64,000 nucleotides of DNA from NCBI GenBank assembly GCA_963845755.1, contig CAWJTV010000015.1, positions 213,306 through 277,305 on the forward strand. The letters are read 5' to 3'. A model generated the notes under the pieces. That model was not told the DNA's origin. It was given only the letters and a program-made list of their open reading frames with translations, and ran no database searches. This stretch comes from an uncultured Planctomycetota bacterium (GTDB lineage: Bacteria > Planctomycetota > Planctomycetia > Isosphaerales > Isosphaeraceae). Each line of letters begins with the position of its first letter. The first letter of the stretch is position 1. Position numbers and translations under genes: made by a program. Below are positions 4,039-39,381 of the stretch, piece after piece.

Positions 4039-4131
4039 TTTTTCGGGAACAGGCTTCGAGCGTGTGCAACCCAACTGTGAGGCGCTCTGGAAGAACCTGG
4101 TCAAGATCAATCAGGCCGGGGGAAGTGACCC

Positions 4132-6567: not shown

Positions 6568-6665
6568 CTCCTTCCGGCGGTCCCGCTTTGGCCATGGCAA
6601 GCACGCCGACGTCGAAATCTTGGCGATCGCATCTTGAGCCAACCCGGTGTGATAGGCTATGGTGA

Positions 6666-6723
6666 TTGGAAGTCGAACAATGACTTCCAAAGTCAACACG
6701 GAAACTTCCAACTCGTCAATTGG
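6666..6723. promoter_or_regulatory. Candidate operator upstream of dndA
   Basis: TTGGAAGTC-N7-GACTTCCAA (6666-6690), AACTTCCAA (6703-6711), GTCAATTGG (6715-6723). Confidence 0.7.
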
Positions 6724-6763
6724 CGGATCGGAGATTCCGCAACATCTCCCGGAGGCTCGCTCC

Positions 6764-8204: not shown

Positions 8205-8328
8205 CGGTGATAGGCTATCCTTAGTGATTGCAACCCATCCGTTAAGTGCTCTAGACTTTGCTCGACCGCCTTGGGGATGACGGGCAATTGCTGGGACGCG
8301 ATCGGAACGAATCTCGGAAACATTGACC

Positions 8329-9435: not shown

Positions 9436-9519
9436 CGAGTGAATTCCGCCGGAGTCCATCCATTCACTCGCTAGCGGGTCGGGCTCGTATGAGCCGTCGC
9501 CAACCCAACGTTCGACGCT

Positions 9520-10430
9520 CTAGCCGGATCCCAGGAACTTCTGCCTCCGATGCCAGTCGAGATACGCTGGGTCGGGGTAGAGCGACGAATCGTTGGGCAA
9601 CCGGATCTTCTGCCCATGATACTCGGCGAGCGGCTTCTGGTCGGGGCTGTCTTCGGCGAAACAGTCGCGAGCGACGATGACCGTGAAGTCGTCCGCGATC
9701 GTCCAGAGCCCGTTATCGAACATCCAGTGGGCGTTTCGGCAAAGAGCGATGCCGTTCCGGACGTCGTTATTCCGCGAATCCGAGAACTGGTGGATATGGG
9801 CCGCGTCGATGAGCGTGCTCGACGAGACGGTCATGATCCGGTAGCCGGTCAGGGCACACGCATAGTTGTACGTCGGGACAACCTGGAGCCGGAATCGGGC
9901 TTCCCGGCCCTTCTGCGTCGCATCCTCCGGCGCATGGTGCTGGGAGGCACTGACAACCTGGTCCTCGTTCGGAACCGGGATGCCCAGGAGAGCGCAAAGA
10001 CCCGGCCACTCGTCGTTCGGGAAATACTTGCAGATCAGAACCCGGGCGCCTCGTCCCGAAAAGCCGCGTCCTTCAGGCATGCCTCGAAGTCGGGATTGAG
10101 TTCGGCAAACCTTGCCAGGCGACGATCGGGCGCGGGCTTGCCGTTCTCGCCTACGGCCTTCCAGCAGCCGTCGCTCTGCAAGTGGTAGAACGGGAAGCGC
10201 ACGTCGGGAGCCTGCGTCCGGCGTTCCGCGACGACGTACCAGTACGAACAAAACTGGAAGGCCAACTCGGGCGTCAGAGGCATGACCTTCTCGGGTAAGC
10301 GAGCTTGTTCGGCGAGCTCCATGATCGCGAGGAGAAGCAGCGGCTTGTGCGGTGCTGGGTTGCCCTTGGCCCAGTCAACTCGCAGTTTCCCGAGCTTTGA
10401 CAGCCATCGCTCTCGCGTTATCGCATCCAT
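9520..10430 (-). CDS. SBD (sulfur-binding-domain-like)-HNH endonuclease; indel near 10045
   Basis: N-terminal APHKPLLLLAI and FPFYHLQSDGCW resemble the ScoMcrA/SprMcrA-type SBD; C-terminal CALTG..IDAAHI..NDVRNGIALCRNAHWMFD is an HNH. Confidence 0.8.
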
Positions 10431-10527
10431 CCGGATGCCCTCTTCGACTCTTCGACAACGGACAACGAAGGAATTGTGGGGAAAAGCACCGACGCCGATT
10501 CCTCCAACTCCTTATGACACCAGTTCC

Positions 10528-13089
10528 TTACGTCACAGTTATCTCGTCAGGCGCGGCTTCATAGCCCTCTTTCTCCCTGGCCTGCCGGATCCGCTCGATC
10601 AGCGCCGGCAGGTGCGGCCCAAGCCACTCTTTATTGTTCCCAGGAAACAGCCTGATTCGCCAATGACGAAACCTCTCGCCTCGCCCACCAATCTTCACTG
10701 CGTCCACCGCCGCACAGCGGAAGAATAGGTTGATTGTTCGCCGCAGAAACATTTCCCACCACTCGGGTTCCTTGGCGTGAATGCGCGTCGGAGTCTTCAT
10801 AATCGGTAATCGCGTCGGCGCGGAGGTCAAGATCGTTTGATTGTTGCGAAAGCTGATGTTCTGAATTCCTTTTCCCTCCGGGCCGTTGCAGGTTTTGCAC
10901 AGCGTTTGCAAATTGTCGAAGTGGTTGTTGCCCCCGTGGTAGCTAGGCGAAATATGATCCACTTGAAGCTGTGTCCTTTGCTTGCCGTAGCCACAGCACA
11001 AGCAATGGAACCCGTCCCGCGACTTGACCCGTTCCTTCAACTCGTCGGATGGCTCGACGATCGGTATCGCCTCGGGTGTCTTGAATTGGGGACGATGTTT
11101 TCCGGGATCGGTGCCATGTCGTTTGGCGTGGAGGATTCGATTAACACAAGCATCGTAATGCGATTTGAAGAGGTCGTAGTTGTAGTAAATCACGCGCCAA
11201 TATCGATCTCTATCATGATACTCTGCATCTAAGGCCGCATCCTCATCAACGCGGCTCAGACGATCCGCGAGGAGCCGATGTGCAACCGCATCGAGATCGT
11301 GATGGTCTCTGACGTCGAACGGGAAGAACTTTGGGACCTGCTTTTCATTTTGGGCAACGTGTCTTGCAATGCCGAACAGGTCCTCAACCAGTCCTCCTCC
11401 GACGCGCACATCGACCCCAGAAAAGAACTTTTCGTGCCAGTGGTTGACTCGCTCTCTGACATCTGCAATCCGAACGGAATCCTCCTCAAACGAGCCCAAG
11501 TCTTCGTTCTTGAGTGAATTGATGAAGGACTCGAACGCTGGCTTCTCATCCTCGAACACCATGACCAGTTGGCCGACTGGCTCAACATCATCGGTTCCCT
11601 CTACGTGCGCGTAGAATTCGACGCGATACCAGCCAATCGGGAGAAAGGCTTTATAGGGAGCAGGATTCACGTTGATCCCCGAATCCATCTGTCTGGCGAG
11701 GCGTCGAACAAGGTCGATCGAAATCATCTGGAGCGGCGGCCTCTTGCCGTACTCGGGGATTGTCTCATCGGCCAACCCGGGAGCGAGCTGGTCGTACGCC
11801 GCCCAGTTGATGCGGTGTTTCCAGTTGTCAATGAACGAGACAATGAACGCCTTGTCGGTCCCGCCGAACTTTGGTCCTCGGAGGGGGTGCCCAACCATCT
11901 GGGTCAAGAGAATCTGGCTTGTTGTCTGCCGCGTGAGGAAGACCGTCTGCACATCGGGAACGTCGGTTCCTTCGGTGGCCATCCGGATGTTGATCAGGAC
12001 GTCGAGTTTTCCGTCACGGAAGGCTTGAAGCACTTTCGCATTCTCGGCTGATGTGCGCCGGTTTCTGGCTTCTGTGCTGCCTGGATTTGCGTCAACGTGG
12101 GAATAGATGGCATCAGCCTTCACGTCTCGTTTCTTGAGCGCTTTGCTCAGTTGTTCGCATTGCTCCCAGCGGTCCGCAAAAATGATCGTTTTTCCGTATC
12201 TCTGGCGCTGGCTGACGTAGCAGCCAGCAATATACTCGTTCCGTTCCCGGCTGCTTGCGAGCGAAGTGATGATCGTGTCGGGCAGATCCCGGTTTGTTCC
12301 CACCCAATTCTCGTATTCTCGCTCGTCGAAGTTCGCGTCGAAGGCGGTCGGAGCTTCCTCAGGCACGGGCCTGGCGAGGATGCCAGCGGCCATCAATTTT
12401 TGCGGAGCAACTTGATAGATAATGCCTTGCGGAAAGAGCTTGTGCAGCCAACCGCGTCTATTTTCCTCGCTGTAGGTGGGCGTAGCCGTGAATCCCATCA
12501 AGTGCATCTGCGGGCAACGCTCACGGAGGCCCAGGATCAGGCTTCTGTAGCTCGGAGCCGGCGAATGGTGGGCTTCATCGAAAACGACGAACAACCGACC
12601 CTTCGTAGAGTCCAGGAACCGATCTAATTGCCGGTGGCGATGGCTGACCGCGTTGCAAACAGTTTGCAGCGAGCTAATCACGACGTCGTCACTCGCTTGA
12701 ATGGAATGGACAGGGAAGTGGCCGATCGTGCCTGAGACGACGCGACTACACAGCCGAGACTTCGGTTCTGCAATCAGGCCGACAACGTCGGAGAAGCTGG
12801 AATGGGCTTGCTCCAGCAGATGGTGGGTATGGGCCAACCACAGGACCTTGAAACCGTCGGATAGCGGGTTCCGGCAGATGAAATGACAGGCCGTGAATGT
12901 CTTGCCGGCTCCAGTCGGGAGAACGAGAATTCCCCCGCGAGGTTCCGGCGGAGCGGATTTGTACCACTTGTCGAGTTTCTGGAGTGCCTCCGCCTGATGC
13001 GGCGCAGGACTCTTGGCGACTCCATGCCGGCGAGCTTCGGAGAGGTCATATTCGCGGTAGGAGTCACTTGTTTGGTTCGGCGTGGCCAT
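10528..13089 (-). CDS. SF2 DExH helicase (type III Res-like) fused to a C-terminal HNH nuclease
   Basis: VLPTGAGKT, LWLAHT, DEAHH, GFTATP, TEGTDVP, QMVG..LRG; HNH CLCCG..LQVDHI..GGNNHFDNLQTLCKTCN; visibly lower GC than the flanks. Confidence 0.88.
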   Translation of the reverse strand: MATPNQTSDSYREYDLSEARRHGVAKSPAPHQAEALQKLDKWYKSAPPEPRGGILVLPTGAGKTFTACHFICRNPLSDGFKVLWLAHTHHLLEQAHSSFSDVVGLIAEPKSRLCSRVVSGTIGHFPVHSIQASDDVVISSLQTVCNAVSHRHRQLDRFLDSTKGRLFVVFDEAHHSPAPSYRSLILGLRERCPQMHLMGFTATPTYSEENRRGWLHKLFPQGIIYQVAPQKLMAAGILARPVPEEAPTAFDANFDEREYENWVGTNRDLPDTIITSLASSRERNEYIAGCYVSQRQRYGKTIIFADRWEQCEQLSKALKKRDVKADAIYSHVDANPGSTEARNRRTSAENAKVLQAFRDGKLDVLINIRMATEGTDVPDVQTVFLTRQTTSQILLTQMVGHPLRGPKFGGTDKAFIVSFIDNWKHRINWAAYDQLAPGLADETIPEYGKRPPLQMISIDLVRRLARQMDSGINVNPAPYKAFLPIGWYRVEFYAHVEGTDDVEPVGQLVMVFEDEKPAFESFINSLKNEDLGSFEEDSVRIADVRERVNHWHEKFFSGVDVRVGGGLVEDLFGIARHVAQNEKQVPKFFPFDVRDHHDLDAVAHRLLADRLSRVDEDAALDAEYHDRDRYWRVIYYNYDLFKSHYDACVNRILHAKRHGTDPGKHRPQFKTPEAIPIVEPSDELKERVKSRDGFHCLCCGYGKQRTQLQVDHISPSYHGGNNHFDNLQTLCKTCNGPEGKGIQNISFRNNQTILTSAPTRLPIMKTPTRIHAKEPEWWEMFLRRTINLFFRCAAVDAVKIGGRGERFRHWRIRLFPGNNKEWLGPHLPALIERIRQAREKEGYEAAPDEITVT

Positions 13090-13143
13090 TCGAGCAGACC
13101 TTAGCTACATGGGGGCGATGACACTGTGGCTGATCGCCCGAGT

Positions 13144-13473
13144 TCAGTGGACCGGGCCCTCCTGCTCGATCGTCGGCGTCCCTTTCAACGATTTCCGCTC
13201 TGGCAGGGCTGTTTGCTCCGTCTCGCTGGCACTCTTCCAGGACTGATAGAACTCCTCAACCTTGCCGATCTTCTCGGGGTGGATGAGTTGCAAGACGACC
13301 GCATTTGATTCTTGAAGGTCCCGTTCAGAGCCTTCAGGCCACATGCCGCCGCCGTTGCCAACCCGATCACACGCAAGGTCGTGCTTATTCAGGTATCTAC
13401 GAAACTTCCCTTCCTCTGTTCGAGGAACTTCGAATAACCCCGTCTGTTCGTTAATGATTCTTAGCTCTCCCAT
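13144..13473 (-). CDS. Small hypothetical protein upstream of the helicase-HNH
   Basis: ATG at 13473 after a GAAGGGA RBS; same strand and lower-GC block as the helicase. Confidence 0.45.
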   Translation of the reverse strand: MGELRIINEQTGLFEVPRTEEGKFRRYLNKHDLACDRVGNGGGMWPEGSERDLQESNAVVLQLIHPEKIGKVEEFYQSWKSASETEQTALPERKSLKGTPTIEQEGPVH

Positions 13474-13845
13474 GTCATGTCCCTTCACCACTATGTTGTG
13501 AGCAGATTCACCACACCCGGTCTGAGCGGGCCAGCGCATTCCAAAATAACCTCCAAACGGAAAGTTTAACGCCAAGATTGGCCGGAAGTCCATTACATGC
13601 AGGGATTTCTCGCACCCAGCCATCCGAACGGCAACATGCAATTCCCACTGGTGGGTCGAAGTCAGCCTGACCTGAGTCTCACCGACTCGCTGGTTTGTGG
13701 GAGGTGCAATTCAGTTTCTGGACGGAGAACTCTAGCAAGTCGTGAGAACAATGGCTTTATTGCCTGCTGTCGTGGCCAGCTTCAAGAGGCAATTAACGAC
13801 ATGCATCATTTACCCCGGTTCGACACCGTCGGATCCGCTGGACAA

Positions 13846-14556
13846 GACGCCGACGAGTGGGACGCGATCCGCGGCCCGCCACCGAGGACTTGCTGGTCTA
13901 CCTGGCCCTCGATCGGTTCCGGCGACGTCCGCCGATGTCCGCCCTGCCGATCGGCCTCCAGCGGGACATCCGGGCGTTCTTCGGCAGCTATGCCAGCGCC
14001 TGCCGCCTGGCGGACGACCGACTTTTCCAGGCCGGTGACGCCGAGGCCGTCGACGACGCCTGCCGACGCTCGGACGTCGGCAAGCTGCTTCCCAACGCCC
14101 TGTATCTCCACCGCACGCCCTGGAATCGCTCGACCCGCGACTCCGCGTCTACGAGGGCTGCGCCCGGGCCTACCTCGGCGAGGTCGAGGGCGCGAACCTG
14201 ATCAAGCTGCACCGCCAATCGGGCAAGGTGTCGTACCTCGTCTACCCCGACTTCGAGACCGACCCCCACCCGGCGCTGTTGCGAAGCATCAAGCTGAACC
14301 TCCGCACCCGCGAGATCGAGAGCACCGATTACGCCCAGAGCGCCAACCCGCCGGTCCTCCACCGCAAGGAGACGTTCCTGCTTCCCGATCACCCGTTACG
14401 GGCGAAGTTCGAGCGGCTCAGCGCCAGGAGGAGTGCGCCGGCCTGCTGGACGAGACCGCGACGATCGGCACGCGCGAGGGGTGGGCGGAGCGGCTCCGCG
14501 CGACGGGCTACGCACTACGAGGTCATCGGCTGGTCCGGAATCGTACAGGGGATTGA
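13846..14556 (+). pseudogene. Repeat unit 1: 5'-truncated C-terminal fragment of the Dnd-associated putative methyltransferase
   Basis: EDLLVYLAL.RF, QRDIRAFFGSY, VGKLLPNALYLH, LIKLHRQSGKVSYLVYPDFETDPHPALLRS, NPPVLHRKETF, GHRLVR; no start codon or N-terminal domain. Confidence 0.8.
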
Positions 14557-14654
14557 ATCGCGGTGTCAGGCGATCTACTGCCGGGACGGGTTGAGCGCGG
14601 ACCACGTCGGTTTGAACTGGCACAAGGGTTACCTTCACCAGTTACATCGTCGGA

Positions 14655-15090
14655 TCAGAATTCCAGCCGGAAGGAGCCCTTGGGGCCTTCGAAGGTGAAA
14701 ACGCAATGTCGAAGGACGTCTCTGCCGATCAGAGCCTGGAATCCCTGAGTCGAGAGATCCGATTCGATGACCGGAATCGTCACCATCAGGGGATGGGTCT
14801 GAGTCTCACCCAGCACAATACAAGCGTCATACTGATTGCATGCCTGAAAGGCCGGTCCCGTGGAAGGAGTGTGGATGTAGGTGATCCCTCGGAAATCGAG
14901 ACCAAGGCTCGCAATCAGTCCGCGATCCAGCGCGGCAGCTGGCGCCGGTGTCGAGCAAACCGAGGCCCACACACGGAGACGAGAAGGGAATCCCCGCTTT
15001 CTTCAGCGCCTCGACCCGCTGACGACTCTGCATGGCTTTGAAGGGGACTAGCGGCCCCAAGGCACTGATCCGGTCGGACAGGACGGACAT
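14655..15090 (-). CDS. Retropepsin-like (clan AA) aspartyl protease; indel near 14935
   Basis: GLLDTGAS catalytic motif and C-terminal QALIGRDVL. Confidence 0.8.
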
Positions 15091-15314
15091 CAAGCAAGGT
15101 CCCGTGAGAAATACTGGATCGGTTCCACTCGACTGATTTGTTTGACCAAGAAAGCAACCACGCCAAACTTCTCGTATCCGGCCTGAAGCGCATCTTCGTA
15201 CGAGTCGAAGGGGCCTTCGATCGCCTCGCCGTGCACGACGACGTACTTCCCCTCGTTGGCGAGCAGGTCCATCAGGTGCTCGTTGTATACGGCCAGCTCC
15301 CGCTCCAAGGCCAT
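15090..15314 (-). CDS. Small protein (DUF5678-like) coupled to the aspartyl protease
   Basis: EGKYVVVHGEAIEGPFDSYEDALQAGYEKFG; its stop overlaps the protease start (TGATG). Confidence 0.7.
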   Translation of the reverse strand: MALERELAVYNEHLMDLLANEGKYVVVHGEAIEGPFDSYEDALQAGYEKFGVVAFLVKQISRVEPIQYFSRDLA

Positions 15315-15596
15315 CGTTATCACCTCGATCGATTGAACCTCGATGGCTAGAACGCCCTACAATCACTGAATATCGGCCCAGAAGCCGGTATTCTTTGGGC
15401 AGAATGTGCAATTCCCACAGCGTCCCCGCTTCGCAAGCTGGCTTACACGCCGAAACATTGCCGACAACTATCGCCCGGACCAACTCAATGATTCTCTGAT
15501 CGTTAGTACACAATCTCGGACGGTATCAAGAGCCAGCTTCGGGAATCGGGCATTAATCCAGCTCGGCCATTCGACACGGCACCGCCAAGCTCTGGA

Positions 15597-16426
15597 CCCG
15601 GTTCGGCTCGCTCCCGCGGGCGTTCGCCCTGGTCAAACGCGTCACCGGCTCCTAGTTGGACGTGATCTCCCGGCGCAGCACCGAGGGCTTTCTCGTGTAC
15701 CTGGCCCTCGGCCGGTTCTGGCGCCGGCCGACGATGTCCGCACTGCCGATCGGGCTCCAGCGGGGCATCCGGGCGTTCCCTCGCGGGAGACCCTCGGTCC
15801 GGCTCGCGACGGGGTCGGGAGACCCTCGCCGAACAGCTTCTGGCCGACGACCGGCTGTTCCAGGCCGGCGACGCCGAGGCCGTCGATGACGCCTGCCGAC
15901 GCTCGGACGTCGGCAAGCTGTTGCCCAACGCCCTGTATCTCCACCGCAGCGCCCTGGAATCGCTCGACCCGCTGCTCCGCGTCTACGAGGGCTGCGCCGG
16001 TCTTACCTCGGCGAGGTCGAAGGCGCCAACCTGATCAAGCTGCACCGCCATTCGGGCAAGGTCTCGTACCTGGTCTACCCCGACTTCGAGACCGACCCCC
16101 ACCCGGCCCTGTTGCGCAGCATCAAGCTCGACCTCCGCACCCGCGAGATTGAGAGCACCGATTACGCTCGACAGCGCGAATCCGCCGGTCCTCCACCGCA
16201 AGGAGACGTTCCTGCTGCCCGATCATCCTCTGCGCCGAAGTTCGAGCGGCTGACGCGCCAGGAGGAGCGCGCCGGCCTGCTGGACGAAACGGCCACGATC
16301 GGCACACGGGACGGTTGGGAGGCACGATTGCAAGAGAGGGGGTTCACGATTCGCGGGCATCGCTTGATACGACGGGTTTCACGACCGCCCGATGACGAGT
16401 CAGATCAGAGTGATGTAGACTGCTGA
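15597..16426 (+). pseudogene. Repeat unit 2 of the Dnd-associated methyltransferase 3' fragment, with an internal stop and a REP-like insertion at ~15779-15838
   Basis: Nucleotide similarity to the other units; ends GHRLIRRVSRPPDDESDQSDVDC*. Confidence 0.8.
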
Positions 16427-16444
16427 ACCATCGTCGTCAACCAC

Positions 16445-16873
16445 TTACCTCGTCCAGTCTTCGGTGACGAGGTTGGGGACTCTGGCGAAGTCCCCCGTAT
16501 TACGAGTCAGCAACACCAAGGCGCGCGATAGCGCGATCGAGGCGATCCGCAGGTCCATCGTGTCAACGCGCAATCGGCGGCCGTCCAGCCCATCGAAGAC
16601 CGCCGCGGCGGCTACATCGAACGGCACGACGGGAGCCGCCGCGAATTGCCTTAGGTTCCTGGCGAGCATGCTATATCCCCGCACGATGTCCTCGGCCTTC
16701 CGCGCCCGATTGATGTAAGTATGGGCCCCCAGGGCCTGCTCGTGGAAGCTCACGATGGAGAACCCCAGGTCGGACCGAGATGCTTGACGAATGCGGGCTG
16801 ACAGCGTGGCATACTCCTGGCCGGATTGCCGCTGAAGGATGCTGATGTGATCGGTGTCCAGCAAGTACTTCAC
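16445..16873 (-). CDS. vapC: VapC/PIN-domain toxin
   Basis: KYLLDTDHIS ... DTMDLRIASIALS..LLTRNTGDFARVPNLVTEDW; GTG start overlaps the antitoxin stop. Confidence 0.88.
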   Translation of the reverse strand: MKYLLDTDHISILQRQSGQEYATLSARIRQASRSDLGFSIVSFHEQALGAHTYINRARKAEDIVRGYSMLARNLRQFAAAPVVPFDVAAAAVFDGLDGRRLRVDTMDLRIASIALSRALVLLTRNTGDFARVPNLVTEDWTR

Positions 16874-17083
16874 GGCACGATGTCCTCGACGGATCGCTCT
16901 CCCTTTCGAAATCGCCCGGCCGTAGGCAATCACCTCGTCAAAAGCTGGCTCATCTTTGAACGAACCGATGACCTGTTCCAGCCAATCCGGAGCCGGCGGC
17001 TGGATCAAAAGGTGCTCTCGAAGTTCGGCAACCGCAGCCTCCACGGCCGCGAGACGCTCTTCAACCGTTGTGTCCACAGGCAT
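16870..17083 (-). CDS. Putative antitoxin of the VapC
   Basis: TVEERLAAVEAAVAELR..DWLEQVIGSFKDEPAFDEVIAYGRAIR; one extra A at ~16910 fuses it to vapC in this copy (compare the second copy). Confidence 0.75.
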
Positions 17084-17328
17084 GAGAGCTCACCCCCTAA
17101 GAGCCTCAGGTGATCCCGCTATTGTTCCATTCTCCCATCGGCTGAGGCCGCTTCAGCTCGGTCGAGCTTCACGGGATAGGGCAGAAACCCTCCTCCTAAG
17201 ATAACTCGGTCTCCCAAATCTAGCGAGCCCACCGACTCGATCAAGCCCCGTTGAGATCTCGAACGAGTCTCAGGGATGCCGGACGGCATTGATCGCGGGG
17301 CGAGAGCTGTTTCGGGTTGCCAAGGGAG

Positions 17329-18151
17329 CGGTTGCCGGATGCCGACGAATGCATGCCGGCCGCCGCGATCGTGGCCCGGTTCGGCTCGCTCAAGCGGGCC
17401 TTCGCCCTGGTCAAGCGGGTGACCGGCCCCGATGAGTGGGACGCGATCGCCCGGCGCAGCACCGAGGACCTACTCGTGTACCTGGCCCTCGGGCGGTTCC
17501 GGCGCCGGCCGCCGATGTCCGCCCTGCCGATCGGCCTCCAGCGGGACATCCGGGCGTTCTTCGGCAGTTACTCCAACGCTTGCCGCCTGGCCGACGAGCG
17601 GCTGTTCCCGGCCGGCGACGCCGAGGCCGTCGATGACGCCTGCCGACGCTCGGACGTCGGCAAGCTCTTGCCCAACGCCCTGTATCTCCACCGCAGCGCC
17701 CTGGAATCGCTCGACCCGCTCCTCCGCGTCTCCGAGGGCTGCGCCCGGGCCTACCTCGGCGAGGTCGAAGGCGCCAACCTGATCAAGCTGCACCGCCAAT
17801 CGGGCAAGGTCTCGTACCTCGTCTACCCCGACTTCGAGACCGATCCCCACCCGGCCCTGTTGCGGAGCATCAAGCTCAACCTCCGCACCCGCGAGATCGA
17901 GAGCACCGATTACTCCCAGAGCGCGAATCCGCCAGTCCTCCACCGCAAGGAGACGTTCCTGCTTCCCGATCACCCGTTACGGGCGAAGTTCGAGCGGCTG
18001 ACGCGCGCAGGAGGAGCGCGCCGGCCTGCTGGACGAGACCGCGACGATCGGCACGCGGGAGGGCTGGCAGAGGCGACTGCAGGAGAGCGGGTTCACGGTT
18101 CTCGGACATTGCTTGATACGACGGATCGCACAGAAGCCCAAGGACGAGTAG
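17329..18151 (+). pseudogene. Repeat unit 3 of the Dnd-associated methyltransferase 3' fragment
   Basis: RLPDADEC..ARFGSLKRAFALVKRVTG through NPPVLHRKETF; ends GHCLIRRIAQKPKDE*. Confidence 0.82.
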
Positions 18152-18240
18152 GATTGAAGGTATTCCCTGGCAGCGTGGCTTGATGGAGATTCTTATTGGC
18201 GGTTCAAGTCGAGCAGCCAGCGCGAAGAGGAGGGATGGTC

Positions 18241-18474
18241 ATGTCGAGCGTGACGTTGGAAGAGGCGCAAAGTCACCTGGCCCAGTTGATCGAGCAGCTC
18301 CAGCCCGGTGAAGAGATCGTGATCACTCGCGACCGTAAGCCGGTTGCCCGCCTGATCGCCGAGTCGGAACCCCGGCGGCAACCGCGGCGTCTGGGAACCA
18401 TGAAAGGGACGGTCCTTCACATCGCGCCCGACTTCGATGCGCCTCTCGAGGACTTCAAGGAGTACATGGAGTGA
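18241..18474 (+). CDS. Phd/YefM-family antitoxin
   Basis: VTLEEAQSHLAQLIE..GEEIVITRDRKPVARL..DFDAPLEDFKEYM; GAGGAGG RBS. Confidence 0.88.
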   Translation: MSSVTLEEAQSHLAQLIEQLQPGEEIVITRDRKPVARLIAESEPRRQPRRLGTMKGTVLHIAPDFDAPLEDFKEYME

Positions 18475-18858
18475 GGCTCATTCTCGATTCCCATGTCCTC
18501 CTCTGGGCGGTCGATGATCCAGTCCGACTCAGTCCAACCGCCGCCGCCCTCTTGCAAGACCCGGCCAACGAGTTACTCGTCAGCGCAGCCACCATCTGGG
18601 AGATGTCCATCAAGGTCGGACTGGGAAAGCTGACCCTTTCCCAACCGTACCGCGACGTGGATGACCCAGGCCCTTGCTGATCTCGGGGCTACGATCCTGC
18701 CGATTACCGTGGAGTATTCCGACGCTCAGGCTGCATTGCCCTTTCATCATCGCGACCCCTTCGATCGGTTGATTATCGCTCAAACTCTTGTCGAAGGAAT
18801 CTCGGTCGTCAGTGACGACGGCCAGTTCGACGCTTATGGCGTCAGCCGCCTCTGGTGA
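18471..18858 (+). CDS. vapC: PIN-domain (VapC-like) toxin; indel near 18655
   Basis: LILDSHVLLW..VSAATIWEMSIK..GKL..HHRDPFDRLIIAQ; GTGA overlap with the antitoxin. Confidence 0.88.
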
Positions 18859-18872
18859 GGCAGAAGTTCCGC

Positions 18873-19685
18873 TTGGCGGCCCTCGGCCGGTTGCCGAAGG
18901 CCGACGAATGCCCGCAGGCGACGAAGTCGCGGCCCGGTTCGGCTCGCTCCCGCGGGCGTTCGCCCTGGTCAAGCGGGTCACCGGCGCCGACGAGTGGGAT
19001 ACGATCGCCCGCCGCAGCACCGAGGACCTGCTCGGGTACCTGGCCCTGGGCCGGTTCCGGCGACGGCCGCAGATGTCGGCCCTGCCGATCGGGCTCCAGC
19101 GGGACATCCGGGCGTTCTTCGGCAGCTATGCCAAGGCCTGCCGCCAGGCCGACGACCGGCTGTTCCAGGCCGGCAGTGCCGAGGCCGTCGATGACGCCTG
19201 CCGACGCTCGGCCGTCGGCAAGCTCCTGCCCAACGCCCTGTACGTCCACCGCAGCTCCCTGGAATCGCTCGACCCGCTGCTCCGCGTCTATGAGGGCTGC
19301 GCCGGGCCTATCTCGGCGAGGTCGAGGGCGCGAACCTGATCAAGCTGCACCGCCAGTCGGGCAAGGTCTCGTACCTCGTCTACCCCGACTTCGAGACCGA
19401 TCCTCACCCGGGCCTGTTGCGGGGCATCAAGCTCAACCTCCGCACCCGCGAGATCGAGAGCACCGATTACGCCCAGCAGCGCGAATCCGCCGGTCCTCCA
19501 CCGCAAGGAGACGTTCCTGCTCCCCGAGCACCCCTTGCGCGCGAAGTTCGAGCGGCTGACGCGCCAGGAGGAGCGCGCCGGGTTGCTGGACGAGACCGCG
19601 ACGATCGGCACACGGGAAGGGTGGGCGGAACGGCTGCGAACGATGGGCTACGCTCTCCGTGGCCATCGGCTGATTCGGAGCAAGT
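18873..19685 (+). pseudogene. Repeat unit 4 of the Dnd-associated methyltransferase 3' fragment
   Basis: Begins ~15 bp after the vapC stop (AALGRLPKADEC); homology ends at GYALRGHRLIRS. Confidence 0.82.
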
Positions 19686-19776
19686 CGAGGGATTGCCCCC
19701 CCGAGTCTCGAGTGAGTACCGCCGCGGACGATGACGCGGCACAGTCCGGAAGTGCTGAGTCGGCTGGCTACAGCGC

Positions 19777-19992
19777 CTATCTTTTGGATTGCGCACGCTC
19801 CATGCCAGCGCGACGCCGTCGGCCGGCGCCCGCGTCGGAACATGCCCCGAAGGCGGCGCCCAGGAGCCCGATGATCATCAGCATGGACAGGCCGATGCCC
19901 TTGACGTCGTTTTCCTTCAAGGCCGCGATACCGACGCTGAAAGCTGCGACGATGAAGAGAAAGCTGCCGATGGTTGACCTAGGTGGATGCAT
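19777..19992 (-). CDS. Small hydrophobic (membrane) protein, possibly a fragment
   Basis: STIGSFLFIVAAFSVGIAAL..GIGLSMLMIIGLLGAAF; two hydrophobic segments. Confidence 0.4.
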   Translation of the reverse strand: MHPPRSTIGSFLFIVAAFSVGIAALKENDVKGIGLSMLMIIGLLGAAFGACSDAGAGRRRRAGMERAQSKR

Positions 19993-20173
19993 CGTGATTT
20001 TCCCATGAGCGACCCCTGCATCCTAATCTCCTCAGCGAAGGCGGTAAACGACCTGGCTGGGGGAGGAGCCTCCGTCCCGCGACCACACCGGCCGAAGATC
20101 GGCGGCCCGAGCCGGCTCCTGCAGGGGTTCGTCGGGGGCCTTTCGTCATTGCGAAACCCACAGGTTAGGCGCT

Positions 20174-20798
20174 CTAACCGCCCGCATCGACAAACGGCCC
20201 GAACCAATCGAGCCGGTAAGTGAGGTCTAAGAGGAGTTCGTCGTAAGTCACGCAGAAGATCCGCTTGGAATTGACGATGACGTGCTCGCGTCGCCAACGC
20301 AGGCGGTCATCCTCACCGGTATTCATGTGCTGGTCACGGCCGATCACCAGGACCCCCGTATAATCGATCGCCGCGCCTCCCGCATCGGGCCTCCATCGTG
20401 GCCGTACCAGTCATGTCCTGGAGCTTGTAGAACCAGTCGACGACCTGGGAGAATCCGTGCTCGAAGCGCGGGCTCCACTCCCGGGTGGACTTGTCGCCGT
20501 GCTTGACGAACAAGCTGCGTGGTCCCGCATCCTCAAACTCGACGAAGGTGCAAGCGCGCGTCACCGAGTCGGCGATCGCCAGGTCGCGACGAAACTCCCC
20601 GAAGAGGGGGTACTCGTAGGCCATGAGGTCGAGCCGTTTCACTGCAGGTGTGTGGGGCCCGATCAGGGCTGTCGCATGTGGCCGCGACCGGAAGAAGTCA
20701 CGGAAGGCGGCTTCCTTCAAGTGGGCATGCGATTCCAGAAGCACCCGGAACTCCTCAACCTCGGCGTGGGCAGCGCGGGGATCGAGCACGTGAGGCAC
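20174..20798 (-). CDS. DUF4263/Shedu (SduA)-like PD-(D/E)XK nuclease domain; indel near 20380
   Basis: YEYPLFGEFRRDLAI..FVEFED..FEHGFSQVVDWF, then GVLVIGRD..RLRWR..CVTYDELL. Confidence 0.75.
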
Positions 20799-20827
20799 GA
20801 AGTCGGGCTTGGGACGACGCCCTCCCC

Positions 20828-21118
20828 TTACTTGGCCCCAGCGATCGTTTGCAGCGTCTCATGGTGGACGATGTCGGCAACCTCCAGGGGCCGGCCGGGG
20901 CGCAAGGAGATCAGGATCCTCCAGCCCCCATCGATCGGTATCACGTAGAACGTCTCCGACACGCCCGGCCTCCTGGCCACGCGCGCGGGCCACTCGCTCG
21001 GAGGGAGCTTGGCGAGGGTCTCCAGCTTCGCTCGGATCGCCGCCTGGTCGGCCTCCGGCAATTGATAGAATGCGTTGAATGCGCGATAATGCAGCCCGAA
21101 TCCAGCGATTTCCATCAT
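20828..21118 (-). CDS. RelE/ParE-like small protein
   Basis: 96 aa: FYQLPEADQAAIRAKLETLA..FYVIPIDGGWRILISL..EVADIVHH; GAGGAGG RBS; no adjacent antitoxin seen. Confidence 0.55.
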   Translation of the reverse strand: MMEIAGFGLHYRAFNAFYQLPEADQAAIRAKLETLAKLPPSEWPARVARRPGVSETFYVIPIDGGWRILISLRPGRPLEVADIVHHETLQTIAGAK

Positions 21119-21283
21119 CGGCCTCCTCAGCCTCGACCCCGCACCGTTTCTTCTCGGGGCGGACGTCTGCCCACCGGACTCCATTCTACGTCAGGATTCC
21201 CACCCCGCTCAAGGTCGGGTGTCGTTCGGCGCTGCTCGACGAAGCGGCGACGATCGGTACGCGGCCAGCCGGCAGCGGCGGAA

Positions 21284-22224
21284 GGCCGCGGCGCCGCGCA
21301 AGCGGATCTCGGAAGTCCGGTTCGAGGAGAACCGGGAGCTGCTCGAACCGTTCCTGGCGACGATCGCCGCCTTCGGGCGGTTGCCGGAGGCCGACGAATG
21401 CGCGCAGGCCGCCGAGGTCGTGGCCCGATTCGGCTCGCTCAAACGGGCCTTCGCCCTCGTCAAGCGGGTCACCGGCGCCGACGAGTGGGACGCGATCGCC
21501 CGGCGCAGGCACCGAGGACTTGCTCGTCTACCTGGCCCTGGGCCGGTTCCGGCGCCGGCCGCCGATGTCCGTCCTGCCGATCGGCCTCCCGCGGGACATC
21601 CGGGCGTTCTTCAGCAGCTATGCCAATGCCTGCCGCCTGGCCGACGAGCGGCTGTTCCAGGCCGGCGACGCCGCGGCCGTCGACGACGCCTGCCGACGCT
21701 CGGACGTCGGCAAGCTCCTGCCCAACGCCCGGTATCTCCACCGCAGCGCCCTGGAATCGCTCCACCCGCTACTCCGCGTCTCCGAGGGCTGCGCCCGGGC
21801 CTATCTCGGCGAGGTCGAGGGTGCGAACCTGATCAAGCTGCACCGCCAATCGGGCAAGGTGTCGTACCTCGTCTACCCCGACTTCGAGACCGATCCCCAC
21901 CCGGCCCTGTTGCGGAGCATCAAGCTGAACCTGCGCACCCGCGAGATTGAGAGCAGCGATTACGCCCAGAGCGCGAACCCGCCGGTCCTCCACCGCAAGG
22001 AGACGTTCCTGCTGCCCGATCATCCTCTGCGCCCGAAGTTCGAGCGGCTGACGCGCCAGGAGGAGCGAGCCGGCCTGCTGGACGAAACGGCCACGATCGG
22101 CACGCGGGACGGTTGGGAGGCACGCTTGCAAGAGAGGGGGTTCACGATTCGCGGGCATCGCTTGATACGACGGGTTTCACGACCGCCCGATGACGAGTCA
22201 GATCAGAGTGATGTAGACTGCTGA
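21284..22224 (+). pseudogene. Repeat unit 5 (longest) of the Dnd-associated methyltransferase 3' fragment, preceded by a ~33 bp remnant (LLDEAATIGTR) at 21231-21263
   Basis: APRKRISEVRFEENRELLEPFLATIAAFGRLPEADEC...; 3' tail same as unit 2. Confidence 0.82.
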
Positions 22225-22242
22225 ACCATCGTCGTTAACCAC

Positions 22243-22671
22243 TTACCTCGTCCAGTCTTCGGTGACGAGGTTTGGGACTCTGGCGAAGTCCCCCGTATTA
22301 CGAGTCAGCAACACCAAGGCGCGCGATAGCGCGATCGAGGCGATCCGCAGGTCCATCGTGTCACCGCGAATCGGCGGCCGTCCAGCCCATCGAAGACCGC
22401 CGCGGCGGCTACATCGAACGGCACGACGGGAGCCGCCGCGAATTGCCTTAGGATCCTGGCGAGCATGCTATATCCCCGCACGATGTCCTCGGCCTTCCGG
22501 GCCCGATTGATGTAAGTATGGGCCCCCAGGGCCTGCTCGTGGAAGCTCACGATGGAGAACCCCAGGTCGGACCGAGATTCTTGACGAATGCGGGCTGACA
22601 GCGTGGCATACTCCTCGGCCGGATTGCCGCTGAAGGATGCTGATGTGATCGGTGTCCAGCAAGTACTTCAC
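22243..22671 (-). CDS. vapC: VapC/PIN toxin, second copy (indels)
   Basis: Near-identical to 16445-16873 with point substitutions. Confidence 0.82.
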
Positions 22672-22880
22672 GGCACGATGTCCTCGACGGATCGCTCTCC
22701 CTCTCGAATCGCCCGGCCGTATGCAATCACCTCGTCAAAAGCTGGCTCATCTTTGAACGAACCGATGACCTGTTCCAGCCAATCCGGAGCCGGCGGCTGG
22801 ATCAAAAGGTGCTCTCGAAGTTCGGCAACCGCAGCCTCCACGGCCGCGAGACGCTCTTCAACCGTTGTGTCCACAGGCAT
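22668..22880 (-). CDS. Putative antitoxin, second copy
   Basis: Ends REGERSVEDIVP* overlapping the vapC GTG. Confidence 0.78.
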   Translation of the reverse strand: MPVDTTVEERLAAVEAAVAELREHLLIQPPAPDWLEQVIGSFKDEPAFDEVIAYGRAIREGERSVEDIVP

Positions 22881-23132
22881 GAGAGCTGCGACCCCCTCGT
22901 GCCTCCTCAGGTGATCCCGCTTTTGTTCCATACTCCCATCGGCTGAGAGCCGCATTCAGCTCGGTCGAGTTTCACGGGATAGGGCGGAAACCCTCCTCCT
23001 AAGATAACTCGGTCTCCCAAATCTAGCGAGCCCACCGACTCGATCAAGCCCCGTTGAGATCTCGAACGAGTCTCGAGAGGATGCCGGACGGCATTGATCG
23101 CGGGGCGAGAGCTGTTTCGGGTTGCCAAGGGA

Positions 23133-23448
23133 GCGGTTGCCGGATGCCGTCGAATGCGCCGCCGGTCGCCGCGATCGTGGCCCGGTTCGGCTCGCTCAAG
23201 CGGGCCTTCGCCCTGGTTAAGCGGGTGACCGGCGCCGAGGACTGGGACGCGATCAGCCGGCGCAGCACCGAGGACCTGCTCGTCTACCTGGCCCTGGGCC
23301 GGTTCCGGCGACGGCCGCCGATGTCCGCTTCGCCGATCGGACTCCAGCGGGACATCCGGGCGTTCTTCGGCAGTTATGCCAACGCCTGCCGCCTTGCCGA
23401 CGACCGGTTGTTCCCGGCTGGCGACGCCGTGGCTGTCGATGACGCCCC
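23133..23448 (+). pseudogene. Repeat unit 6 of the methyltransferase fragment, truncated at both ends; right border of the array
   Basis: ARFGSLKRAFALVKRVTG..QRDIRAFFGSYANACRLADDRLF..VDDA, then homology stops. Confidence 0.8.
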
Positions 23449-23580
23449 GCCGCCGCTCGGCCGTGGATAAGCTGTCCGAATTGGGTGACGAGCGGGAAGG
23501 GTCATTGACCCTGGTCGATAATGGCTTGAGAGATCGAGATCGTTGATTTGGCAGGTCCAGGTGGATGGAGATCGAGGTTG

Positions 23581-24825
23581 ATGGCGACGAATGAGAGCAT
23601 GAAGACGATGGTCACGCCGCAGGCGACCGAACAGGGGACTGTGGTCGCCGTTCTGCTGGCGCTCAGTGTATCCCATTTGCTCAATGATACGATGCAATCG
23701 CTCCTCCCGGCGGTGTATCCGATCATGAAGGCACGGTATGCCCTCAGTTTTACCCAGGTCGGACTGATCACCTTCGTCTTCCAGGTGACCGCCTCGCTCC
23801 TTCAGCCGGTCGTGGGCTTTTCCACCGACCGCCGGCCACGGCCGTACTCGCTCGCCTGCGGGATGGTTTTCACGCTCGTCGGTTTGATCCTCCTGTCGGT
23901 CGCAGGCAGTTTCTCCGCAATCCTGCTCGCTGCCGGACTGGTGGGAGTCGGTTCGTCGGTGTTCCATCCGGAGGCATCGCGGGTCGCTCGGCTGGCGTCG
24001 GGCGGCCGGCACGGGTTTGCCCAATCGTTGTTCCAGGTCGGAGGGAATGCCGGGTCGGCGATCGGACCGCTCCTGGCCGCATTCGTCGTCGTCCCGTGGG
24101 GCCAGTCGAGCATCGCCTGGTGCTCGGTCGCTGCCCTGATCGCGATGACCGTGTTATTCGCCGTCGGCCGGTGGTATGAGCAGCATCTCTCGATGGCGAG
24201 GGCGAGGCCGCGCGCGGGGCACGATTCGGGACGGGTCGGACCGTCGCGGACCCGCGTCATGTCGGCGGTCGGCATCCTCCTCCTGCTGGTCTTCTCGAAG
24301 TACTTCTACCTGGTGAGTCTGAGCAGCTATTACACCTTCTACCTGATCGACCGGTTCGGCGTGTCGGTCCCGACGGCCCAGATCCTCCTGTTCGTTTTCC
24401 TCGGTTCGGTGGCGGCAGGAACCCTGGCCGGCGGGCCGGTCGGAGATCGGATTGGCTTCAAGGCGGTGATCTGGGTGTCGATCCTCGGGGTCCTACCGTT
24501 CACGCTGGTACTGCCTTCCGCCAACCTGTTCTGGACGGGCGTGCTGACCGTCCCGATCGGGGTGATTCTCGCCTCGGCCTTCTCGGCCATCATCGTCTAT
24601 GCCCAGGAACTATTGCCCAGCCGCGTCGGGACGGTTGCCGGCCTGTTCTTCGGGTTCGCGTTCGGCATGGGCGGTCTCGGAGCGGCCCTCCTGGGCCGGC
24701 TGGCCGACTACACGAGCATCGCCTTTGTCTATCGCGTCTGCTCGTTCCTGCCCCTGATGGGGCTCTTGACTGGCTTCCTCCCCAATCTGGACAGAGGACC
24801 GTCCCGGTCCGGTGAGTCGAGATAA
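23581..24825 (+). CDS. fsr: MFS transporter, fosmidomycin-resistance (Fsr) family
   Basis: SHLLNDTMQSL, ASLLQPVVG, GSSVFHPEASRVAR..GGRHGFAQSLFQVGGN, SAFSAIIVYAQEL, GLFFGFAFGMGG. Confidence 0.88.
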   Translation: MATNESMKTMVTPQATEQGTVVAVLLALSVSHLLNDTMQSLLPAVYPIMKARYALSFTQVGLITFVFQVTASLLQPVVGFSTDRRPRPYSLACGMVFTLVGLILLSVAGSFSAILLAAGLVGVGSSVFHPEASRVARLASGGRHGFAQSLFQVGGNAGSAIGPLLAAFVVVPWGQSSIAWCSVAALIAMTVLFAVGRWYEQHLSMARARPRAGHDSGRVGPSRTRVMSAVGILLLLVFSKYFYLVSLSSYYTFYLIDRFGVSVPTAQILLFVFLGSVAAGTLAGGPVGDRIGFKAVIWVSILGVLPFTLVLPSANLFWTGVLTVPIGVILASAFSAIIVYAQELLPSRVGTVAGLFFGFAFGMGGLGAALLGRLADYTSIAFVYRVCSFLPLMGLLTGFLPNLDRGPSRSGESR

Positions 24826-25797: not shown

Positions 25798-26055
25798 ACG
25801 CCGCGGACTCGATAATCTGTCGCCAGATGCCCGGAGATAGCAGACGAGAAGCCACGTTGAGTGGGTCCAACACTGCGGCGCGGAGTGAGGCCCACCGAGC
25901 GAATCCGGTGGGCCTCGCCTCGATGAATCGAGGCTCGACCCACTCTACGACATGACGGGATCGTATCCTCGGTTCGGTAGCAACACGACCGGTCGTGGTA
26001 TAGAATCGACTCGTGTTTTGCCGCCGATCATGATTCCTTGCCGGGGGTTGAATCC

Positions 26056-37518: not shown

Positions 37519-37522
37519 CACC

Positions 37523-39368: not shown

Positions 39369-39381
39369 GGGTATTCACGCG

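Follow-up and report, generated by a model that had tools for sequence, protein, structure and literature searches.

Organisation of the array and its surroundings

The window analysed here is a stretch of 64,000 nucleotides from an uncultured planctomycete. Repeat searching and self-blastn located an array at 13848-23474 in which the 3' part of a TIGR04096 methyltransferase gene occurs six times, always in the same orientation and truncated at the 5' side. The number, orientation and divergence of the copies agreed with the original prediction; identity among units was 84-92% (self-blastn). All units matched NCBIfam TIGR04096 in an HMM search, from profile positions of approximately 151-258 up to 477 of 478, and represent the 3' ~45-70% of the family. 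E-values were 2.8e-78 for U3, 5.2e-74 for U5 and 1e-23 for the weakest unit, U6. Judged by these scores, the match to the C-terminal part of the methyltransferase is far above chance, as had been proposed.

All units lie on the plus strand, and residue ranges follow the numbering of a 482-aa full-length relative. U1 (13848..14556; residues ~262-482) occupies the head position, has lost its 5' half and carries three frameshifts. A sensitive HMM scan of 12901-14000 recovered only profile positions 259-301 and no 5' half. U2 (15582..16426; residues 226-480) is the most damaged unit, with approximately five lesions that include an in-frame stop and a 34-nt insertion. U3 (17328..18183; residues 217-480) has one frameshift close to its 3' end, U4 (18876..19700; residues ~214/229-482) has three and U5 (21186..22224; residues 153-480) has one. 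The terminal unit, U6 (23133..23474), runs from residue 227 to approximately 320 and is 3'-truncated. Start-to-start distances between consecutive units were 1833, 1747, 1558, 2492 and 1756 bp. The predicted boundaries were broadly correct, except that U5 begins approximately 100 bp upstream of 21284, the position first assigned. A 33-bp remnant noticed at the 5' edge of U5 is real (21232-21264, 85% identity to the reference copy) and codes for an LLDEAATIGTR stretch from the 3' part of another unit.

Each window unit is disrupted by 1-5 frameshifts or a stop. Long genes (2.2-3.3 kb) near the array are intact, so the unit frameshifts do not reflect general assembly error. As predicted, none of the six units has a convincing start codon; a TTG sits precisely on the 5' edge of U3. 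Four of the six start 3' of a conserved internal Met, 'MATIAALGRLPE'. The GC content of the units is 0.68-0.72 versus 0.57-0.64 in the spacers.

Cargo orientation in the array is mixed. Spacer A (14557..15581, minus strand, GC 0.571) contains minus-strand ORFs at 14655-14972 and 15090-15323. The DUF5678-like and aspartyl protease labels given earlier could not be sustained for this cargo, with no Pfam family matched even at E<=1 and no family match to either ORF. The spacer is orthologous to one in a same-genus genome, G046 (95.6%). Spacer B (16427..17327, minus strand) holds a PIN-containing ORF, 16445-17083, which is VapC-like with an N-terminal extension; its PIN match is weak (E 0.0049, under the Pfam cut-off), and relatives occur in the G032 and G034 arrays at ~81%. 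Spacer C (18184..18875, plus strand) encodes a Phd/YefM antitoxin (18196-18474) and then a truncated PIN toxin (18471-18680). Spacer D (19701..21185, minus strand) opens with ~470 bp of window-specific sequence, followed by a Shedu-like DUF4263 nuclease gene (20334-20798; PADLOC SduA E 1e-43) that is C-terminally short, and by a 118-aa ORF (20828-21184). The Phd, PIN and DUF4263 assignments were thus borne out, the PIN ORF of spacer B weakly. The last ORF had been called RelE-like, and only a weak ParE match (E 0.11) was found. The block 20174-21217 stands directly after a unit in the arrays of G034 (80%), G071 (79%) and G070 (71%), and is partly present on contig C20 of the window's own genome. 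Spacer B' (22225..23132, minus strand) repeats the PIN module in a form split into ORFs 22305-22550 and 22668-22955.

The array adjoins the expected dnd cluster, comprising dndC, dndB, a frameshift-split dndA, a second dndB and a PT-DNA restriction HNH gene. It begins at the expected site of the full methyltransferase gene, divergent from a helicase/nuclease gene, an arrangement also found at the intact-gene loci L012, L023, L028 and L039. In place of the methyltransferase 5' half stands a low-GC (0.556) segment at 10429..13847 (minus strand), which carries a PbeA-like helicase+HNH gene (10528-13089) and a small upstream ORF (13144-13641) and had no match within the 46 kb compared of G046 contig C5. 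An MFS transporter gene (23548-24825) comes after U6; in G046 it lies on the opposite side of the island. A full-length TIGR04096 parent gene was absent from the window's genome (49 contigs, 88% complete). Since the head copy is truncated and no such parent was found in this genome, the array is a fossil. It is a relic and not the working landing pad, formed by the 3' end of a functional gene, that had been envisaged.

Recurrence, asymmetry and turnover of arrays

Of the 121 genomes in the order, 28 had a match. Two to eight co-oriented units were present at 18 of the 21 loci examined, which came from 16 genomes. The number of related planctomycete genomes with arrays is at least 16, and in some of these the head gene is intact. 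Multi-unit loci were also found on metagenome contigs (10 of 47, in a sample where only 12 of the 47 loci were at least 5 kb), and at none of 70 non-planctomycete loci.

Comparison of dnd loci among relatives revealed arrays of this kind that carry different sets of cargo, as anticipated, so cargo is not identical and fixed. Locus L117 reads dndD/E/A, intact head, HigBA, orphan, DUF433/DUF5615, orphan, DUF4058, orphan. HigBA stands behind the head in L117 and behind an orphan in L139. Similarly, the Shedu block follows the head-position unit in G034 (the longest, residues 81-482), whereas in the window, G071 and G070 it comes after orphans. The downstream genes of six solitary full-length planctomycete genes were varied, with few recognisable toxin-antitoxin (TA) modules.

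The units are asymmetric. Among 54 interior units, the native 3' terminus is retained by 52, whereas 5' ends were scattered from residue 5 to 453. Unit length declines away from the head (mean Spearman -0.46, 16 arrays, permutation p 0.0005), also with heads excluded (mean -0.49, 9 arrays, p 0.0055); the arrays tested include the non-independent window and G046 arrays and two G071 contigs. The terminal unit was 3'-truncated in 11 of 16 arrays.

The window and G046 have U1-A-U2-B-U3' in common at 95.6%. A DUF433 module separates the U3 and U5 orthologues in G046; the window has Phd/PIN-U4-Shedu at this place. In the assembled sequence, stretches of 16235-17352 (~1.1 kb in total), consisting of the PIN spacer and adjoining unit ends, recur in 22033-23157 at 95-99% identity, ~5.8 kb downstream. 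The best partner of U2 changes along its length from U4 (92%) to U5 (98%), and two frameshifts, a -1 and a +1 ~175 nt apart, are common to U2 and U4. Contig C20 of the same genome carries an incomplete, paralogous array. As read from these sequence patterns, the array is shown to have been duplicated, deleted and patch-converted by homologous recombination between fragments. The fragments are direct repeats, and ordinary homologous recombination could therefore reshape it.

Origin of the units

Pairs of window units gave dN/dS values of 0.12-0.38 at dS 0.19-0.51. A value of 0.55 was estimated for in-place decay, assuming a neutral orphan branch, and was reached by at most 2 of 1000 bootstraps in seven of ten window pairs. 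Among 22 pairs from nine other arrays, 16 had dN/dS of 0.28 or below, among them the pairs formed by the head and the first orphan of L012, L023, L024 and L117. The remaining six pairs gave 0.42-0.70; these and the U2 pairs (up to 0.33-0.38) are compatible with some in-place decay. Because the copies differ mostly at synonymous sites, they would have diverged as working alleles elsewhere and not in place, and the low dN/dS points to import of 3' ends from separately evolving working alleles. We infer the capture step, which the original prediction had as serial capture, from dN/dS alone.

With moderate confidence, we propose that homology-anchored recombination brought in new 3' ends together with their downstream genes, displacing the old ends, and that recombination between the repeats then reshaped the array. 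Judging from relatives, the locus would originally have held a TIGR04096 methyltransferase gene of the Dnd/Ssp-associated kind and a PT-associated helicase/nuclease gene transcribed divergently from it. The resident methyltransferase gene would have undergone repeated recombination with DNA of closely related strains. The first crossover would fall within its conserved 3' half, and the other donor end would be joined non-homologously, within the resident gene or directly after it. Each event would supply a fresh 3' end plus the donor's downstream genes, mostly TA or small nuclease genes, and displace the resident 3' end further downstream, as a fragment lacking its 5' part and a promoter. The direct-repeat fragments would later recombine, giving duplications, deletions and patch conversion. 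Loss of a spacer by such recombination would probably be costly where the TA cargo is addictive, which would account for spacer persistence. Today the head lacks its 5' half, which has given way to the low-GC helicase-HNH segment, and the array is a relic. Some observations sit awkwardly with the displacement model. Terminal 3' truncation is accounted for only via a random distal break or rearrangement. Most heads are broken, L012 and L117 being the only loci where orphans accompanied an intact or near-intact head, so arrays might build up only in dying loci. The scarcity of recognisable TA modules behind the six solitary full-length genes also counts against it.

A purely internal origin, which we consider unlikely, would begin with illegitimate tandem duplication of the 3' half and downstream DNA, with no contribution from other strains. 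Unequal crossing-over would follow, along with gene conversion by a head that was then still functional, and spacer genes would be inserted or replaced. The PIN-spacer repeats, mosaic partners and common frameshifts do show internal duplication or conversion, and the paralogous piece on C20 fits the same picture. Between the window and G034, the Shedu block (80%) is about as similar as the PT-restriction gene (80.6%), which fits old vertical descent. Copies grouped mainly by genome or genus in a 47-unit tree, as an internal origin would have it; donors may instead be close relatives, which species-level sampling is too coarse to resolve in this tree, or gene conversion may have homogenised the copies. 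However, an internal origin predicts pairwise dN/dS of about 0.55 or above by our estimate, and most pairs lie at 0.12-0.28 with dS to 0.5. Duplication alone also leaves unexplained the mutually unrelated spacers, and intact interior 3' ends beside ragged 5' ends count against it.

Low dN/dS would equally be expected if the units were functional stand-alone C-terminal proteins, started from the internal Met, paired with the downstream toxin or nuclease and selected in place. Many database proteins of 273-300 aa begin at this Met, some from contigs >100 kb, and the C-terminal domain alone is predicted to fold confidently (pLDDT 97). We nevertheless regard this as improbable: the lesions affect every window unit beside intact neighbours, the upstream edge excludes the internal Met from four of six units, start codons are inconsistent, and 5' ends fall at any point from residue 70 to 453, cutting into what is modelled as a single compact fold.

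Co-oriented repeated 3' ends with foreign, lower-GC spacers also resemble tandem accretion of site-specific islands, each targeting the methyltransferase gene and bringing a replacement 3' end, with integrases since lost. This is very improbable, given that the window 5' edges vary (residues 153, 214, 217, 226, 227 and 262) and the repeats are 700-1000 bp, not short att sites. As predicted, no integrase was apparent: none of the genome's 43 tyrosine integrase (PF00589) matches falls on the window's contig (C15) or on C20, and composition-chosen ORFs, Pfam-scanned in and around 29 related loci, gave no such match, IS transposases being the only recombination genes among them. Spacers held no attC-like hairpins, with 0-1 weak inverted repeats each and none at junctions.

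Least probable of all is an assembly artefact joining metagenomic strain variants of one locus head to tail, which a probable MAG (49 contigs, 88% complete) and strain- or species-like unit identities might suggest, since U1-A-U2-B-U3' is collinear in the independently assembled G046, junctions between units and cargo are found again on C20 and in other genera, like architecture occurs in the genomes and short-read metagenome contigs counted above, and chained variants would not yield mutually unrelated spacers.

Comparison with known systems

Chromosomal integrons string together small modules, most of which look promoterless, in linear arrays; TA genes are abundant in such arrays and may protect them from deletion. 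The array is likewise linear and TA-rich, and the earlier term integron-like holds as a loose picture. It differs in lacking IntI, attI/attC and a fixed recombination point, in its ragged 5' boundaries and mixed cargo orientation, and in that its repeat is 0.3-1 kb of coding sequence. In homology-facilitated illegitimate recombination, a laboratory-measured mechanism of naturally transformable bacteria, one end is anchored by homology and the other is non-homologous. The proposed displacement step would be similar, although this mechanism is not known to have produced recurrent arrays at one specific locus. In pilE/pilS, vlsE and phase-variable hsdS, an expression gene stands near truncated, start-less copies able to recombine with it, as here. 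Silent cassettes vary in the part that is exchanged and lie contiguously or inverted, whereas the array copies have a conserved protein sequence and unrelated genes between them.

The closest analogy, as suggested in the original prediction, is with the orphan rhs-CT/rhsI and cdiA-CT/cdiI modules downstream of main genes (Koskiniemi et al. 2014, PMC3967940). As far as that account describes them, a main gene is followed by co-oriented, start-less, 5'-truncated 3' fragments, each with a linked gene; one strain's orphan is another strain's main-gene end; homology between main gene and orphan permits later recombination; and a dedicated recombinase is not involved. Rhs/CDI proteins are secreted toxins with a hypervariable tip and a cognate immunity gene. 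The array gene encodes a cytoplasmic modification enzyme whose 3' half is conserved (dN/dS 0.12-0.38), its cargo, TA or nuclease modules that are complete in themselves, has no relation to the methyltransferase, and re-expressing an orphan would give no apparent benefit. A literature search found no description of such a Dnd-linked gene-end array, in agreement with the original prediction. By analogy, the stranded methyltransferase gene ends with their TA cargo would represent a new form of array that resembles the Rhs/CDI orphans.

Layout of the array and its neighbourhood

The source genome comprised 14.27 Mb in 49 contigs (88% complete), and the window formed the final 64 kb of contig C15. 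Profile searches, together with a repeat search and self-blastn of the window, placed a repeat array on the forward strand at 13848-23474, with six co-oriented copies (U1 to U6) lying 1.56-2.49 kb apart. The copies had been predicted to within ~15 bp, except for U5, the real start of which is ~100 bp earlier, and the predicted 33-bp remnant was recovered by the repeat search at 21232-21264. When searched against NCBIfam, all six copies matched the methyltransferase family TIGR04096 from profile positions ~151-258 up to 477 of 478 (best E 2.8e-78), as expected from their original assignment as 3' parts of this family. Scored as whole proteins, U3 (263.8 bits) and U5 (249.7 bits) were above the curated TIGR04096 cut-off of 150 bits; U1, U2, U4 and U6 gave 16-140 bits with their frames scored separately.

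The spacers between consecutive units (A, B, C, D and B') had a lower GC content (0.57-0.64) than the units (0.68-0.72). Both ORFs of spacer A were without a family match even at E<=1, which gave no confirmation of their earlier labels, DUF5678-like and aspartyl protease. Spacers B and B' contain a PIN-containing ORF that falls under the Pfam cut-off. Spacer C contains a Phd antitoxin and a truncated PIN, and spacer D a Shedu-type DUF4263 gene (PADLOC SduA E 1e-43) with a weak ParE-like ORF (E 0.11).

Upstream of the array lies the phosphorothioation (PT) island: dndC (971-2434, reverse strand), dndB (2468-3568, reverse), dndA (6659-7907, forward), a second, diverged dndB (8323-9435, forward) and a phosphorothioate-DNA restriction HNH gene (9520-10251, reverse). 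Three ORFs between dndB and dndA (3801-4748, 5131-5841 and 6115-6567) matched PDC-S03 and PDC-S17, which PADLOC lists as candidate defence families (E 8.6e-8, 3.3e-21 and 0.0032), and had no NCBIfam name. The dndA gene is broken into two frames that overlap (6659-7222 and 7149-7907) and between them span TIGR03235 positions 1-353. An MFS transporter gene follows the array (23548-24825, forward). Further downstream, a ~110-bp stretch at 25845-25952 matched over 40 sites on many contigs of the same-genus genome G046 (75-98% identity), and is probably a small dispersed repeat of this genus. A microcompartment-type cluster at 36362-45468 comprised genes for phosphate propanoyltransferase, acetate/propionate kinase, a CcmL-like vertex protein, class II aldolase, lactate/malate dehydrogenase and an aldehyde dehydrogenase split into 39771-40598 and 40663-41208.

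The missing parent gene and the condition of the units

A six-frame TIGR04096 search of the whole genome returned 14 fragments, 12 in the window array and two in a smaller array on another contig, C20. The full-length parent gene expected under the original prediction was not among them: all 14 were without profile positions 1-150, and these positions, which fall within the N-terminal SAM-dependent methyltransferase domain (1 to ~200), were unmatched anywhere in the 14.27-Mb genome. The units are pieces of TIGR04096 family members and not members able to work as methyltransferases.

In a filter-free HMM scan of 12901-14000, the start of U1 alone was found and no methyltransferase 5' half. From the start of the adjacent helicase+HNH gene (10528-13089, reverse strand; PADLOC PbeA E 4e-19, TIGR04095 match weak) to the end of U1 (13089-14556), the distance matches the length of one gene almost exactly, which puts U1 in the place of a full gene. 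The 3.4-kb segment 10429-13846, which holds the helicase+HNH gene and, upstream of it, a 165-aa ORF without family, has a GC content of 0.556, below that of the window as a whole (0.640) and of the units (0.68-0.72), and was unmatched in the 46 kb compared of G046 contig C5. Judged by the place of U1, the HMM scan, the low GC and the absence from this G046 stretch, the head gene, i.e. the first, parent-position copy, has had its 5' half replaced by a foreign segment. In this genome the array survives as a relic that has no functional methyltransferase. The split dndA, taken together with the missing methyltransferase, suggests that the entire PT island is decaying.

Units were aligned by codon to a full-length, 482-aa relative, which also supplies the aa numbering used below. 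Their protein sequence is highly conserved, and the sole in-frame stop within the homologous parts is in U2. U1 has three frameshifts; the lesions of the other units number approximately five in U2 (including a 34-nt insertion), one in U3, three in U4, one in U5 and two in U6. Some fall within short C or G runs. Two lesions are common to U2 and U4, with the same context intact in U1, U3 and U5, and nearby genes of 2.2-3.3 kb are uninterrupted. The lesions are thus real, and ordinary assembly noise was ruled out as their source.

Among public sequencing runs only one, from a soil metagenome, shared any sequence words with the window (share 0.07). At 85% likeness it yielded 27 short contigs (eight listed, 151-261 nt) with no qualifying joints, and none extended at least 31 nt across a junction between unit and flank. 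One record joined 16697 to 20562 through 32 intervening nucleotides, at this low likeness threshold.

A full-length TIGR04096 protein was modelled with pLDDT 94 and matched class I SAM methyltransferases through its N-terminal domain only. The C-terminal 273-aa domain alone gave a confident predicted fold (pLDDT 97) with no Foldseek match (best E 0.34) and no clear solved relative; a 59-residue stretch resembled a TetR-type helix-turn-helix at a VIA-align Z of 6.4, a range common for helical parts. Predicted structure comparisons gave no sign of a recombinase, nuclease or homing nuclease in this domain, as might be expected had a homing-type mechanism been at work. No PADLOC model matched the family (0 hits, protein P0040). 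Approximately half of the best 150 TIGR04096 representatives at 50% identity are 600-870 aa long, with an extra N-terminal region of ~180 aa.

Recurrence, polarity and reshuffling of the arrays

TIGR04096 matches were found in 28 of 121 genomes of the order, most of them as several clustered fragments; undivided matches to nearly the whole profile occurred in six genomes. Units in the window and 20 fetched loci were mapped against the full-length protein (80 unit hits), and 18 loci from 16 genomes carried 2-8 co-oriented units. Cargo families vary between these arrays, which bears out the expectation that relatives would carry the same repeat with differing cargo. The genes downstream of units are independent TA or nuclease modules. 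Named from identified ORFs and not formally tallied, the families between units comprised PIN, DUF433/DUF5615, UPF0175/DUF3368, ParE/Phd, HigBA, HEPN, MqsA-like, AbiEii-type AAA_21, Shedu, HNH, dCTP-deaminase-like, DUF1016/YhcG and DUF4058, with occasional IS genes. The clearest example is locus L117, in which dndD-like, dndE-fusion and dndA genes are followed by an intact head (aa 5-482), HigB/HigA, an orphan, i.e. a truncated downstream copy (aa 278-480), DUF433/DUF5615, a second orphan, DUF4058 and a third orphan. Locus L012 has a head of aa 5-480 and two orphans.

Metagenome contigs carried several units in 10 of 47 loci, only 12 of the 47 being 5 kb or longer. A collection-wide scan of all species genomes covered its 80 top-scoring loci. 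Most of these are full-length genes, which such a scan favours, and arrays may be undercounted. A second fragment was present in two of 10 planctomycete loci, one from Thermoguttaceae, and, within the flanks examined, in none of 70 loci from Binatia, cyanobacteria, Acidobacteriota, Proteobacteria and other non-planctomycetes.

Array boundaries were asymmetric. The native 3' end was kept in 52 of 54 interior units, and 5' ends lay anywhere between aa 5 and 453 (aa 153-262 in the window). The farther a unit lay from the head, the shorter it was (mean Spearman -0.46, 16 arrays, permutation p 0.0005), also when the head was excluded (mean -0.49, nine arrays, p 0.0055); these p-values are optimistic, some arrays being related. 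A native unit-to-cargo junction with a ragged cargo-to-unit junction fits the prediction from displacement and not symmetric decay. In 11 of 16 arrays the last unit had lost the 3' end, at varying break positions (aa 249-401), the U6/MFS junction being such a breakpoint in the window. As roughly half of an array consists of unit sequence, distal breaks or rearrangements at random suffice as an explanation, and a special mechanism for terminal units was dropped.

Units and spacers have also been reshuffled. Stretches of 16235-17352, ~1.1 kb in total and comprising the PIN spacer with adjoining unit ends, recur ~5.8 kb downstream at 22033-23157 with 95-99% identity. U2 is a mosaic, its middle closest to U4 (92%) and its 3' end to U5 (98%). 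The smaller array on C20 (106000-110000; locus L022, 8347-11822) contains three TIGR04096 fragments and is in part paralogous to U4-Shedu-U5 (85-91%), with deletions. Its scanned neighbours included no dnd gene; glycosyltransferase and DUF11 genes flank it.

In G046 (locus L011), U1-A-U2-B-U3' is collinear with the window at 95.6% identity, and the interval from the U3 to the U5 orthologue is occupied by a DUF433 module in place of the window's Phd/PIN-U4-Shedu. The G046 copy of U1 is split by an IS21-type element (8205-10551), with unit residues aa 328-332 on either side, and its U3 orthologue has a ~445-bp MITE-like insertion with G-rich inverted ends (14117-14560). Cargo also changes position between genomes: the Shedu block lies behind the head-position unit, the longest (aa 81-482), in G034 and behind orphans in the window, G071 and G070, and HigBA lies behind the head in L117 and behind an orphan in locus L139. 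Aligned from -2254 to 24829 against C5 31313-52115, the dnd/array core is ~95% identical between the window and G046, and the left flank and MFS gene 87-88%; the MFS gene is on opposite sides of the island in the two genomes. The higher core identity and the MFS placement are a hint that the island was recently exchanged or relocated.

Origin of the array and comparison with known systems

In the best-supported account, which we consider somewhat probable, the 3' end of the gene was displaced again and again as DNA of close relatives recombined with it, anchored by homology; repeat-mediated reshuffling and decay followed. Incoming DNA would recombine by homology in the 3' end of the gene, the right-hand joint of each capture would be illegitimate, and TA cargo would stabilise the array.

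Copies made by duplication in place, or left as snapshots of an evolving head, would be expected at a pairwise dN/dS of ~0.55 or more (our own estimate), because the branch of an in-place copy would itself be neutral. Window pairs gave dN/dS 0.12-0.38 at dS 0.19-0.51 (Nei-Gojobori), and in seven of 10 pairs no more than two of 1000 bootstraps reached 0.55. Among nine other arrays, 16 of 22 pairs were at or below 0.28 and the remaining six at 0.42-0.70; between head and first orphan in L012, L023, L024 and L117, dN/dS was at most 0.28 (dS 0.20-0.56). As most values are well under the neutral-branch expectation, most divergence arose while the copies belonged to working genes, i.e. outside the array. 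The tree of units grouped largely by genome or genus. This counts against a distant origin: donors would have to be close relatives, as homologous recombination requires, unless conversion has blurred the signal.

For an integron, an IntI-type tyrosine recombinase is expected beside the array, and none was found on the array contig. The original prediction of an integron-like array with no visible integrase stood in part, as none of the 43 PF00589 tyrosine recombinase matches in the genome lay on C15 or C20; the likeness to an integron is a loose one, as boundaries are not fixed and junction hairpins were absent. A general inverted-repeat search, with an attC model outside its scope, gave 0-1 weak attC-type repeats per spacer (14-24 nt, 71-87% complementary) and none at a unit junction. 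Tandem islands built by an integrase are expected to have a fixed att-type boundary and an integrase; array boundaries vary, and the ORFs selected for Pfam scans from 29 related loci included no integrase. A silent-cassette or specificity-switching system, in which diversifying differences are concentrated in the exchanged segment, was ruled out, as the protein sequence of the copies is conserved (dN/dS <0.4 in 10 of 10 window pairs).

If serial displacement is the correct account, it provides a simple route for build-up and exchange of TA and small defence genes beside a DNA-phosphorothioation system without mobile-element machinery, and numerous 'short' TIGR04096 database proteins (273-300 aa) are explained as stranded gene ends, not a separate family. 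A head gene with dated fossils of its own 3' end is also a concrete test system. More tentatively, planctomycetes might have a general, recombinase-free homology arm in the conserved 3' half of a gene in a defence island, with any small genes behind it, mainly TA and nuclease, moving from strain to strain by ordinary recombination and orphan arrays as the running record. Were this so, defence and TA genes could spread in 'cassette' form with no need of integrases, transposases or phages, and TA cargo would lock every acquisition in place.

Judged by titles and the starts of abstracts, literature searches for TIGR04096 by id or full family name, and for such arrays, gave no description; the full family name returned what is, by its title, a Rhodococcus genome description. 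Orphan gene-end arrays are already known for polymorphic toxins. The Rhs/CDI-type arrangement of a full-length main gene with co-oriented, 5'-truncated, start-less fragments was found in relatives (L012 and L117), whereas the window's own head is truncated. A variable C-terminal toxin with cognate immunity gene was absent: the C-terminal half is conserved (dN/dS 0.12-0.38), and codon alignment of the units showed no hypervariable block, the sole variable part being a short tail after RGHRLxR. Compared with the Rhs/CDI orphan modules, as presented in PMC3967940, the mechanism would be the same with roles reversed. There, the displaced tip is the selected cargo; here, a conserved enzyme domain is repeated, and the variable part is the hitch-hiking genes that ride behind it.
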